A DNA stretch of 64,000 bases from Actinomycetota bacterium (GTDB taxonomy: Bacteria; Actinomycetota; CADDZG01; JAHWKV01): positions 211,510-275,509 of the forward strand of contig JAHWKU010000002.1 of the NCBI GenBank assembly GCA_019347715.1, given 5' to 3'. Every line of letters starts with the position of its first letter. Within the stretch, counting starts at the first letter, position 1. The notes under the pieces were generated by a model that saw only the letters and a program-made list of their open reading frames with translations, did no database searches and had not been told where the DNA came from. The position numbers and the translations under genes were made by a program. Of the stretch, positions 47,334 through 56,770 are shown in pieces.

Positions 47334-48011
47334 ATGTGGGCACTACTGAGGGACATCCCTGAACCGGAAGTCAAAGAACTGCTCGCGTCCGCCGAGCGCA
47401 GGAAGTTCAGGCGCGATGAGGTCATCTTCCACGAAGGAGATCCGGCGGGATCCGTTCATCTCATCGACGCCGGCCGTGTGGCAATCAGATCGACTACGCC
47501 CGTGGGGGATGTCGCAACCGTCCATGTCTTTGGCAGCAAGGACTACTTTGGCGAAATGGCCCTGCTTTCAGAAGGAGGGGTAAGGAGCGCCTCGGCGATA
47601 GCCCTCGAGCCCACCCAGACCATTGCAATTTCGAGGACAGACTTCGACCGGCTTCGCTCCAAATATCCCCAGGTCACCGATGTTCTCGTCCGTTTGCTTG
47701 CCGACCGAGTCAGGGCTCTTACCACTAACCTGATGGAGGCCTTATACGTCCCAGCCGATCTGCGGGTTCTTCGGCGTGTGGTCGATCTGACTCAGGAATA
47801 TCGCACCGACCAAGACGGGATAGATGTCGTGATCCCAATGAAGCAGGAAGTGATTGCAGGGTTGGCCGGAACCTCTCGAGCGACTGTCAATAGGATCCTT
47901 CGGGAAGAGGAGAAGCGGGGCTCTCTCAAGCTCGATAGAGGCAGAGTGACGATCCGCGACCCGCACGCCATCTCCAAGCGCGCCTACCGTCATGGAGTGT
48001 CACGGGTTTGA
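47334..48011 (+). CDS. Crp/Fnr family transcriptional regulator
   Basis: cNMP domain FGEMALL...RSASA and HTH QEVIAGLAGTSRATVNR. Confidence 0.92.
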   Translation: MWALLRDIPEPEVKELLASAERRKFRRDEVIFHEGDPAGSVHLIDAGRVAIRSTTPVGDVATVHVFGSKDYFGEMALLSEGGVRSASAIALEPTQTIAISRTDFDRLRSKYPQVTDVLVRLLADRVRALTTNLMEALYVPADLRVLRRVVDLTQEYRTDQDGIDVVIPMKQEVIAGLAGTSRATVNRILREEEKRGSLKLDRGRVTIRDPHAISKRAYRHGVSRV

Positions 48012-48198
48012 CGTACCGGGAGTAATCTCCGTGAAAGAAAGATCCTTGCCGATCGCGTATGTTGAGCGCGGGGTTGGCGTCCGGGCTAGACGGTGACCCT
48101 TCGAGATGAGGGCCGGGGGTGAAAACCTCCCTGGCAAGCGGTTCGTCCTCCCGGCCACCTCATCTTGACGAACACCAGTGACTGCTATCCTTTTCAAC

Positions 48199-48279
48199 AT
48201 GACTGTCTTCTTTGAGTCACTCGAGCGCCGCATGGCGATGCCATCGCCCGGTCTCCGGGCACAAAAACGGCGTCCTTGA
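48199..48279 (+). CDS. Putative 26-aa metG leader peptide MTVFFESLERRMAMPSPGLRAQKRRP
   Basis: ATG lies 7 nt after extended -10 TGcTATCCT; internal Met-Ala-Met; followed by a terminator. Confidence 0.6.
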   Translation: MTVFFESLERRMAMPSPGLRAQKRRP

Positions 48280-48302
48280 TCTGATCTGAGTGATTCATCC
48301 AC

Positions 48303-48324
48303 GGCCGCCATAGGCGGCCTTTTT
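48303..48324 (+). terminator. Attenuator terminator before metG
   Basis: GGCCGCC-ATA-GGCGGCC-TTTTT immediately before the AAGGAGG RBS. Confidence 0.8.
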
Positions 48325-48338
48325 CATAAGGAGGCATC

Positions 48339-49901
48339 ATGACCAATCCCGCGCGATGGTTTATCTCGAGCTCTATCCCGTATGTGAACGCACGTCCTCA
48401 TCTTGGTTTCGCTCTCGAAATCGTTCAGGCAGATGCGCTGGCGAGATTCAGGAGGACGCAGGGATCGGAAGTCCACTTCCTCACGGGCACCGACGACAAC
48501 AGCCTGTCGAATGTTCGCGCCGCTGAGAACAACGGCATACCCACTCGGGAGTTGGTAGAGCGACATTCCGCAGCCTTTTTCGAGCTCCGTCAAGTTCTCG
48601 ATCTCTCATTCGATGACTTCATAAAAACTAGCTCGGATCCTCGTCATGCTCCGGCTGTTCATCGGTTGTGGCAGCTCTGTGAAGCCAATGGCGACATCTA
48701 TAAGCAGGCTTATCGGGGTCTCTACTGTGTGGGTTGCGAGGTCTTTTACAAAGAGTCCGAAGTTGACGAAGGTCGCTGTCCCGTCCATTTCTCCCAACTG
48801 GAGGCAGTGGAGGAGGAGAACTATTTCTTTCGCCTCTCCCGCTATCAAGACGCGCTGGAGAAGGCTCTCGAGTCAGATCGAGTTCGGATCGAGCCGTTGG
48901 AGCGCAGAAACGAGGCTCTTGGCTTCTTAAAGGCCGGGCTCGAGGACATAAGTATCTCCAGATCGAGTCAAAGGGCGCGCGGCTGGGGTATTCCGGTGCC
49001 GAGAGACGAAAGTCAGATCATCTATGTCTGGTTCGATGCTCTTGCCAATTACATCAGCGCGCTGGGTTATGCCGAGGACGCAGAGGCATTCGAGCGGTTC
49101 TGGCTCTCGAGTGATGTTCGAGCTCATGTCATAGGAAAGGACATCGTGCGCCAGCATGCCGTTTACTGGCCCGCGTTTCTCCTGTCTGCAGGGTTGCCTC
49201 TCCCGACCGTGATCTACGTCCATGGCTTTCTTTCGATCTCCGGACGCAAGATAAGCAAGTCCGTCGGAAGCGGTGTCGATCCGGTTGAGCTGGCTCGTGC
49301 GTATGGGTCCGATGCCGTTCGCTACTACCTGTTGGCTAAGGTTCCCTCACTCAAGGACAGTGACTTCTCCCTGCAAACCTTCGATCGCGTCTACCGATCG
49401 GATCTCGCCGACCAGCTCGGCAACCTAGTTTCGAGAGCAGTTGCGCTCGCGCGTAAGGAAGGCGGGATTGCTTCGTCCGACAGAGGGTTTCCCGAAGGTG
49501 CCGATCTGTTGGTTGAAGTGGCGCTGAATCTGCCCCAGGACATCGAGAGCTTCGTCGACGCCTTCGACTTCTCAGCAGCATTGGGCGCGATTTGGGCCTT
49601 GGTCAGGGAAGCCAACCGATTCGTCGTTGAGGCAAAGCCATGGGAGCGACCGCCTCAGTCCGAAGAGAGATCGGCCGTTGTCTATCTCCTCCTGGAAACT
49701 TTGCGCTGGGTAGCTATCCACCTCGCCCCGTTTCTCCCGGGGACGGCGACCGAGATTGCCGGAAGGCTTGGTCTGATCTCTCCCGGGGCCGAGGGGTTCG
49801 GCGAGGGGGCCTTTCAGGTTAGGGAAGCTGCGGTCGCTCTGTTCCCCAAAACAGGGACTCGTGCTCACATAGCGGAAGGAAGTGCCACTAACCGTGTTTA
49901 A
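48339..49901 (+). CDS. metG: Methionyl-tRNA synthetase (short form, divergent motifs)
   Basis: PYVNARPHLGF, GTDD, CVGC...CPVH knuckle, YVWFDAL, GKDI, KISKS. Confidence 0.9.
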   Translation: MTNPARWFISSSIPYVNARPHLGFALEIVQADALARFRRTQGSEVHFLTGTDDNSLSNVRAAENNGIPTRELVERHSAAFFELRQVLDLSFDDFIKTSSDPRHAPAVHRLWQLCEANGDIYKQAYRGLYCVGCEVFYKESEVDEGRCPVHFSQLEAVEEENYFFRLSRYQDALEKALESDRVRIEPLERRNEALGFLKAGLEDISISRSSQRARGWGIPVPRDESQIIYVWFDALANYISALGYAEDAEAFERFWLSSDVRAHVIGKDIVRQHAVYWPAFLLSAGLPLPTVIYVHGFLSISGRKISKSVGSGVDPVELARAYGSDAVRYYLLAKVPSLKDSDFSLQTFDRVYRSDLADQLGNLVSRAVALARKEGGIASSDRGFPEGADLLVEVALNLPQDIESFVDAFDFSAALGAIWALVREANRFVVEAKPWERPPQSEERSAVVYLLLETLRWVAIHLAPFLPGTATEIAGRLGLISPGAEGFGEGAFQVREAAVALFPKTGTRAHIAEGSATNRV

Positions 49902-56565: not shown

Positions 56566-56602
56566 TTGCTGCTTCCCGTCCTCGTCCGTTCCCCGAACGA
56601 AG

Positions 56603-56682
56603 GGCGGGTCGGTCTCGCCATTAGCTCCCCCGGTCCACAAGGCGACCGTATAAGTGATCCGGGATCAAAGCTCCCCTCTACT
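56603..56682 (-). ncRNA. Cyclic di-GMP-II riboswitch
   Basis: GGGGAGC-UUUGAU-CCCGGAUCAC..GGUCGCCUU-GUGGACCGGG-GGAGCUAAUGGCGAGACCGACCC; pseudoknot UCGCC/GGCGA; lies in the 5' UTR. Confidence 0.8.
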
Positions 56683-56770
56683 CAGACCTGGGACGGTTCC
56701 TCCTTTCGCTCATTAGTGGTTCAGGTCCGAGACCAGCTCTAATCTTTTGTGACTAGTCACTGTTAGTTAT

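Follow-up and report, generated by a model that had tools for sequence, protein, structure and literature searches.

A probable methionine-sensing leader-peptide attenuator upstream of metG in an Actinomycetota genome

Analysis of a stretch of 64,000 nucleotides from an Actinomycetota bacterium (GenBank assembly GCA_019347715.1, contig JAHWKU010000002.1, positions 211,510 to 275,509 of the forward strand; this whole stretch is referred to below as the window, and coordinates are counted from its first letter) suggests that the region directly upstream of metG, which encodes a methionyl-tRNA synthetase (MetRS), probably controls this gene as a ribosome-mediated leader-peptide transcription attenuator sensing charged elongator Met-tRNA. 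The element comprises a short upstream open reading frame (uORF) with two internal Met codons, RNA segments with alternative pairing partners and an intrinsic terminator, from which we infer the start of the transcript, translation of the uORF, stalling of the ribosome and the switch itself. An earlier note on this DNA had interpreted the region as a Met-sensing attenuator, and conservation of the element in relatives supports that interpretation. The features of the locus are as follows.

48165..48191, forward strand: putative promoter, with TTGACG at 48165-48170, a 15-nt spacer and an extended -10, TGcTATCCT (TGCTATCCT), at 48183-48191.
48199..48279, forward strand: leader-peptide uORF, with ATG at 48199, 26 sense codons and TGA at 48277-48279 (MTVFFESLERRMAMPSPGLRAQKRRP).
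48213..48230, forward strand: segment 1, the 5' strand of an outer helix, P1 (48213-22), plus GCGCCG (48225-30), from the minimum free energy (MFE) fold.
48232..48242, forward strand: control core ATG GCG ATG CC (Met12-Ala-Met14-Pro).
48246..48260, forward strand: conserved hairpin GCCCGG-TCT-CCGGGC, starting 5 nt past Met14.
48268..48297, forward strand: segment 2, CGGCGTCC (48268-75) followed by the 3' strand of P1 (48288-97), from folding.
48303..48324, forward strand: intrinsic terminator, a stem of seven G-C pairs (GGCCGCC-ATA-GGCGGCC, 48303-48319) with T5 (48320-24), at -13.7 kcal/mol.
48328-34, forward strand: Shine-Dalgarno sequence AAGGAGG, read directly.
48339-49901, forward strand: metG, 520 amino acids (Pfam tRNA-synt_1g, 2.3e-96).
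47334-48011: Crp/Fnr-like gene, the upstream neighbour of the gap before metG.

The gap between the Crp/Fnr-like gene and metG measures 328 nt and holds the whole predicted leader. The extended -10, the 26-codon reading frame with its internal ATG codons at 48232 and 48238 (Met12 and Met14), the complementary segments and the terminator, all described in the earlier note, are read directly from the sequence at those positions. As the -10 ends 7 nt before the ATG at 48199, the uORF would be leaderless or nearly so, judging by a spacing of 7-8 nt in the leaders compared here. GCGCCG (48225-30) is complementary to CGGCGT (48268-73), giving a 1:2 pairing, and GGCGTCC (48269-75) pairs with GGCCGCC (48303-09) with one mismatch, giving a 2:3 pairing, such that CGGCGTCC, which overlaps the last codons of the uORF, has either segment 1 or the 5' arm of the terminator as its partner. 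Distances from the end of the terminator are 4 nt to AAGGAGG and 15 nt to the ATG of metG.

Folding of 48195-48330 gave -53 kcal/mol (z = -4.4), with none of 200 shuffled sequences as low, and the MFE structure consists of P1 (48213-22/48288-97), the 1:2 pairing, two small internal hairpins and the terminator. The 1:2 pairing and the terminator proposed earlier are therefore present in this fold, while P1 and the hairpin at 48246-60 are additions to the earlier model. Regarding known RNA families, the leader had no Rfam 15 match at E<=10, <=1 or <=0.1; no T-box or SAM (S-adenosylmethionine) riboswitch, nor any other credible family, was matched at E<=10 within 47500-48900, no aptamer model for SAM or S-adenosylhomocysteine riboswitches matched the leader, and no T-box sequence is present in it. 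At gathering thresholds the whole window yielded only four tRNAs and a c-di-GMP-II riboswitch, all away from the leader; the latter match (GAG variant, 56598-56684, reverse strand) scored 66.6 bits against a gathering score of 40.

According to the proposed mechanism, transcription would start at or beside the ATG at 48199 and a ribosome would translate the 26-codon uORF. With Met-tRNA scarce, the ribosome would wait at Met12 or Met14, covering segment 1 and opening the base of the hairpin at 48246-60, and the freed segment 2 (48268-75) would pair with the emerging 5' arm of the terminator, allowing RNA polymerase to read into metG. With Met-tRNA plentiful, the ribosome would instead reach the stop codon at 48277 and cover segment 2, the terminator would form, and transcription would end 15 nt upstream of the metG start. 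The hairpin at 48246-60 is likely the pause hairpin or 1:2-type hairpin of classical attenuators, which a ribosome at Met14 would begin to melt, and masking of the metG ribosome-binding site (RBS) by the 5' end of the uORF may, judging from the folds, add a translational layer.

The closest evidence comes from related genomes and environmental strains. Among five loci compared that carry a window-type MetRS gene in related genomes, the leader is present in one, that of G022 (an unpublished genome of a different family in the same order). This leader has a 26-codon uORF whose ATG lies 8 nt past TATACT, with a 13-nt stretch around Met-Ala-Met-Pro identical to that of the window, and downstream of the core come a CCCGG-loop-CCGGG hairpin and a further, strong hairpin that has a T-rich tail, with metG behind them. 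Similarly, a metagenome contig (L204) encoding a MetRS 87% identical to that of the window has kept the uORF, the core, the post-core hairpin and the terminator. Its promoter has TGCTATTCT at the same distance from the uORF, with changes in the spacer and a -10 altered from TATCCT to TATTCT, and codons 4-6 and 22-23 of its uORF carry substitutions, some synonymous and others non-synonymous. A terminator thus lies between uORF and metG in the window, L204, G022 and contigs from soil; its stem is invariant and its T-run is T6 in L204 and the soil contigs versus T5 in the window.

The soil contigs, from three runs and 90-99% alike, were compared over 48020-48520 at depths of 2-10, at which single differences may be errors. 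Variants were found at 48211, 48216, 48229, 48231, 48244, 48254 and 48262, as well as just 5' of the terminator, while none occurred in 48232-43, in the stem of the post-core hairpin or in the terminator stem of any of the three runs, the sole variant within the hairpin at 48246-60 being the loop position 48254. The G>A change at 48216, present in L204 and in the three soil runs, turns a G.U pair of P1 into an A-U pair; in one soil contig, two changes in the 3' strand of P1 both break pairs. One-base insertions behind 48262/48264 put the uORF tail of soil contigs in another frame. TGA stops occur in all three frames within 13 nt past the uORF (48277, 48282 and 48287), so that a strain with a one-base insertion in the tail still terminates nearby. 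The non-synonymous changes and the frameshifted tail among close strains show that conservation does not extend to the peptide. A free peptide combined with constant control codons and RNA stems is what a sensing leader predicts, contrary to a functional small protein, as far as comparison of the strains indicates. Lack of a conserved uORF or of Met codons in homologues had been set beforehand as counting against an attenuator; both are kept in L204 and G022, and they are invariant in the strain contigs.

The core ATG GCG ATG CC is identical in the window, L204, G022 and 12 further contigs described below. Searched for across 401 genomes of the phylum, the exact core was found in the window alone, and a scan of the class allowing one mismatch gave matches in 13 of 113 genomes, those inspected beyond the window's genome (G000) and G022 lying in coding DNA, with one chance match in G035 (an unpublished genome). 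A short ORF on contig L125 (G001:C115:5254-5282) opens with a near-core, ATGGCGATGG, behind GGAG, 128 nt from the contig end. Other Met-containing uORFs sought across G000 gave noise only, the strict filter having also dropped the true uORF because of an overlapping spurious 103-amino-acid frame, and the two candidates inspected precede a glycosyltransferase and guaA.

Regarding more distant relatives, the 400 nt upstream of each of 108 metG loci were scanned for short uORFs, with reverse complements and 540 shuffled sequences as controls. At least four Met codons within seven codons of a uORF were found at 5 of the 108 loci and in none of the 108 reverse complements or 540 shuffles, and at least three at 7 loci, compared with 2 reverse complements and 4 of the 540 shuffles. 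The loci with Met-rich uORFs are from metagenome-assembled genomes (MAGs) labelled Ktedonobacterales, Anaerolineae, Caldilineaceae, Rokubacteria and Myxococcota, and 6 of the 10 best-scoring relatives of the window MetRS have such a uORF. Each Met-rich uORF of this set is followed by a GC hairpin, most of the hairpins having a T-run behind them.

A motif-independent sample was drawn from 46 genomes of the class of the Ktedonobacterales MAG L032, in 22 of which metG was matched at E<=1e-80 (12 of the window type and 10 of another type). A short uORF with three to seven internal Met codons precedes metG at 18 of these 22 loci (11 of 12 of the window type, 7 of 10 of the other type), and all 18 leaders have a GC hairpin and a T-rich tract past the uORF. 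The reverse-complement control for at least three internal Met codons, at 5 of 22, is inflated because CATGGCCATG-like cores are palindromic. In genomes of this kind, none of the regions upstream of 10 ThrC homologues had two or more Met codons in a uORF, the maximum being one; ThrC homologues of five Chloroflexota and Myxococcota genomes, considered as leader carriers, had no Met uORF. As the Met-rich leaders precede both MetRS types, the device is not tied to one MetRS lineage. Among the Ktedonobacteria-class loci, L269, L271, L273 and L275-L278 have a Met-rich uORF and a terminator before the other MetRS type (about 40% identical to that of the window), and the leader peptides of that type differ, with runs such as MPMSM and MMMIM.

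The window peptide aligns lengthwise with the Chloroflexota metG leaders, sharing an FF(E/S)S-like start, M-x-M at codons 8-14, Pro/Arg and Gly-Leu, and its core aligns with their ATGG-NN-ATGC cores. In all 18 window-type leaders inspected, a hairpin begins 0-5 nt past the aligned second Met of the core, and the Gly-Leu codons form the loop of this RNA hairpin. Its sequence is mostly GCGCGG-N4-CCGCGC in Chloroflexota, the third pair being G-C there versus C-G in the window, with both sides changed. The number of Met codons ranges from two to seven across leaders, with two in the window and three to seven in the Chloroflexota relatives; alignment with the nearest MetRS relatives, as the earlier note had proposed, thus recovered homologous leaders that hold more control codons and a terminator. 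The enrichment in Met codons that characterizes a leader-peptide attenuator is hence found in the homologous leaders, and is weak in the window alone.

The same core also occurs in a second setting. A pattern scan of metagenome contigs returned at least 120 stretches, with 80 loci among the matches listed, most of which were chance matches in coding DNA. Twelve of the 80 (L133, L144, L154, L168, L176, L182, L189, L198, L199, L202, L209 and L211) carry what is termed here a type-T leader; these loci are mutually related and were selected by the motif, and they count as one independent observation. A promoter (TTGACA-17-TACGMT) is followed by a 5' hairpin and GGAG, except that L176 is without GGAG and has its uORF ATG 9 nt past a TACGCT -10. 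The uORF has 21 codons, namely M, four variable codons and MAMPLPRESRGALPG, and contains the same 11-nt core in frame. Past it are two hairpins, AGGAGG, a zinc-ribbon ThrC homologue and a ThiS/MoaD-like gene, this gene pair having been confirmed at both of the two loci inspected. MetM is often misannotated as threonine synthase, as a recent preprint describes (bioRxiv 10.1101/2024.10.14.618325), and pairs of this kind fit the MetM/MetO thiocarboxylate route from O-phosphohomoserine to homocysteine; on gene content, the type-T pair is probably MetM-MetO.

In 11 of the 12 type-T leaders the MFE fold pairs the core, ATGGCGATGCCTCT, with GGAGGTACGCC(ATG), that is, the RBS and start codon of the ThrC-like gene, and RNAalifold kept a 14-pair helix in essentially all 12, without covariation because both strands are invariant. 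No T-run follows the hairpins and no Rfam match was obtained for these leaders. A ribosome held on the type-T Met codons would, in these models, free the RBS, making the type-T leader a candidate translational Met attenuator. The type-T leaders place the core in frame, within a uORF and before a candidate for methionine synthesis, an arrangement that supports Met sensing, as judged from gene context.

Several observations weigh against an attenuator controlling metG. Just two control codons are present in the window uORF, as the earlier note had cautioned, and no Shine-Dalgarno sequence precedes it. Short uORFs with two Met codons within seven codons occur in 13 of the 108 metG upstream regions, 13 of the 108 reverse complements and 61 of the 540 shuffles, that is, by chance in about 11-12% (about one in nine) of control regions; since they are equally frequent in controls, the window uORF exceeds chance only via conservation and is weak evidence alone. 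Four of the five same-type metG loci in related genomes have short gaps without the leader (the leaderless state of the G003 locus resting on an unpublished genome), and sensing of codons does not by itself account for a core that is unchanged even at its synonymous positions.

Folding with the ribosome modelled as 28 blocked bases (A-site codon -15 to +12) also gave some results on this side. At equilibrium the window terminator forms with P of 0.86-0.999 at every ribosome position, and the 2:3 pairing becomes weak (p 0.18) when the A site is on Met14 instead of Met12. The measure applied to nascent transcripts is flat or reversed in the relatives L031, L035, L040, L258, L259, L267, L268, L271 and L273. 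The equilibrium measure is uninformative rather than contrary, because the proven E. coli trp attenuator behaves alike, its terminator having P 0.976 in all states. In a nascent transcript of the window leader cut before the 3' arm of the terminator, with Met12 in the A site, 48269-75 pairs with 48303-09 at p 0.97-1.00, and the antiterminator is stabilised by 8.6 kcal/mol, compared with 3.7 when free and 3.8 with the ribosome at the stop (1.7 versus 0.2 in the E. coli trp control). The nascent-transcript measure likewise favours the stalled state in L257, L260, L261, L262, L277 and L032-34, and in the unpublished G022 even the equilibrium P of the terminator falls to 0.016 at the second core Met versus 0.996 at the stop. 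Of the earlier proposal on alternative structures, the 2:3 pairing was thus borne out by the nascent-transcript model with Met12 in the A site, whereas the equilibrium folds did not discriminate and relatives gave mixed results. Because of this mixture we infer the switching step only, in the window as in the wider family.

Among other explanations, control could be translational, the leader masking the metG RBS and a ribosome paused in the uORF unmasking it. This is unlikely for the window, though the best placed of the alternatives. The type-T folds described above, with the same core paired to a downstream Shine-Dalgarno sequence and start codon, are one precedent and the mycobacterial poly-Cys short ORFs discussed below another; in addition, the MFE fold of the full window leader pairs the 5' end of the uORF (codons 1-5) with AAGGAGGCATCATG, and GATGCC, part of the core, has its complement in GGCATC, located between the Shine-Dalgarno sequence and ATG of metG. 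However, the strong hairpin and T-run that type-T leaders do not combine are kept in the window, in L204 and in the Chloroflexota metG leaders, and the pairing of the 5' end with the Shine-Dalgarno sequence is just loosely kept in L204. Transcriptional and translational control could also act together.

Identity of the core at synonymous positions in the window, G022, L204 and the 12 type-T contigs would also follow from an RNA-only switch, riboswitch-like or binding a protein or tRNA, in which the ligand would bind at the ATGGCGATGCC core and hairpin and the presence of a reading frame would be coincidental, and the hairpin is kept despite a one-base difference in its reading frame between metG and type-T leaders. 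We consider this somewhat less probable still, as the Chloroflexota leaders vary the sequence between and around the ATGs while keeping them in one short-ORF frame, with a Met codon number that is anything but fixed, and no Rfam match was found at any of the three thresholds given above. Ten leaders have 43 in-frame internal ATGs versus one out of frame, a count in which only the scarcity out of frame is informative, the uORFs having been chosen by in-frame Met number.

The recurrence of M-(A/V/G)-M, then Pro/Arg and Gly-Leu, across distant lineages could point to nascent-peptide arrest, by which a Met-Ala-Met-Pro...Gly-Leu peptide would stall the ribosome on a small molecule (Met or SAM) rather than in response to tRNA charging. 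This is improbable: Gly-Leu coincides with the loop of the conserved RNA hairpin, which type-T leaders read in another frame, and residues flanking the core vary among close strains (R11G, S16T and L19P). Finally, a spurious short ORF beside a constitutive terminator of the upstream transcript, which the chance frequency of two-Met uORFs and the lack of terminator enrichment (three terminator-like sites in the region, including 48303-24, versus 2.9 +/- 1.8 in shuffles, not significant alone) would allow, is already disfavoured and very improbable, since L204 and G022 have conserved the complete arrangement, which is also homologous to the Met-rich leaders at 18 of 22 sampled metG loci and has its terminator 290 nt past the end of the upstream gene.

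Beyond attenuation of metG in the window, we tentatively propose, as a possibility rather than the expected outcome, that the element belongs to a class of Met-sensing, ribosome-dependent attenuators spanning several phyla, a 'Met ribulon' in which a fixed module, the Met-x-Met core with a GC hairpin 0-5 nt on, is joined to different outputs, either terminators (metG, with two MetRS types) or a helix masking the Shine-Dalgarno sequence (the MetM/MetO-like homocysteine synthase pair). The family is apparently widespread and undescribed. It would explain T-box-free metG regulation in Chloroflexota and in some lineages with a Chloroflexota-type MetRS, and would offer a compact part that responds to Met and has two types of output. 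Methionine is special in that its only codon is the start codon and in that the regulated enzyme charges both initiator and elongator tRNAs; because the sensor ORF itself starts with Met-tRNAfMet, it may weigh the elongator against the initiator pool of Met-tRNA.

Two MetRS genes are encoded in the genome of the window, G000 (2.4 Mb, 55 contigs). The product of the window metG is of a Chloroflexota/CPR (candidate phyla radiation)-like type, its nearest relatives, at 50-58% identity, being those of a few related genomes and, beyond them, of Chloroflexota, Patescibacteria and DPANN-labelled MAGs. The second MetRS (L253, contig C55:66893-68308) is 42% identical to the window copy and of the type carried by most relatives; its gene adjoins a divergent AbrB-like gene, and its leader, about 55 nt long, contains neither uORF nor terminator. 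In G000, as far as these two loci indicate, leader control would be restricted to the Chloroflexota-type copy in the window.

Regarding the rest of the upstream gap, the promoter at 48165-48191 is absent from the promoter-scan list, its 15-nt spacer falling outside the 16-18 rule of that scan. A long imperfect hairpin (GAGATGAGG...CCTCATCTT) occupies 48103-48166 on the forward strand, its end falling in the putative -35; L204 retains this hairpin with an A-U to G.U change, and soil contigs are alignable only from 48052. The hairpin may belong either to the upstream transcript, as a 3' structure, or to the region that controls metG.

Leader-peptide attenuation is textbook knowledge for Trp, His, Phe, Leu, Thr and Ile/Val, and lately for Cys. 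The E. coli pheST attenuator, with its pheM leader peptide, resembles the window element in that an aminoacyl-tRNA synthetase gene is placed under a short leader ORF rich in cognate codons and then a terminator; it differs in sensing Phe rather than Met, in having a leader led by a Shine-Dalgarno sequence and in being proteobacterial; the likeness is one of design. At the RNA level, metG and Met genes are known to be controlled by Met-specific T-boxes and SAM riboswitches, neither of which the Rfam searches found in the leader. That no Met-codon attenuator was known, as stated in the earlier note, held in Rfam 15 and among the matches listed by full-text literature searches, none of which concerned a Met-codon leader peptide or metG attenuation, although the supplementary list of the Deinococcus deserti study cited below could include metG.

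In Actinobacteria, classical attenuators have been reported upstream of Streptomyces trpS and leuS (PMC1262725), which share with the window element leader-peptide attenuation of aminoacyl-tRNA synthetase genes and differ in the amino acid; for methionine operons, this 2005 actinobacterial survey reports, where it deals with them, no conserved RNA regulatory structure. In bacilli, histidine leader peptides precede hisS paralogues (PMC2965389), which likewise are paralogous synthetase copies with an attenuator, as in the window genome where one of two MetRS genes has the leader, but with His codons and in Firmicutes. Leaderless leader peptides have been described in D. deserti in 14 cases, for example before cysS with two Cys codons (PMC4007540), and are similar in that the transcript begins at the leader AUG, as predicted for the window, the control codons are few (two) and synthetase genes are among the targets, a likeness of design. 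Mycobacterial poly-Cys leaderless short ORFs, at which stalled ribosomes block an mRNA structure sequestering the RBS (bioRxiv 10.1101/834739), have the same design as the type-T leaders with Cys instead of Met, whereas the window element has a terminator and not RBS masking alone. Compared with these systems, what would be new here, on the comparisons made, is the use of the classical logic for Met, in a uORF that is probably leaderless and, in the window, has a very short run of control codons, together with a module that also occurs in a translational version.

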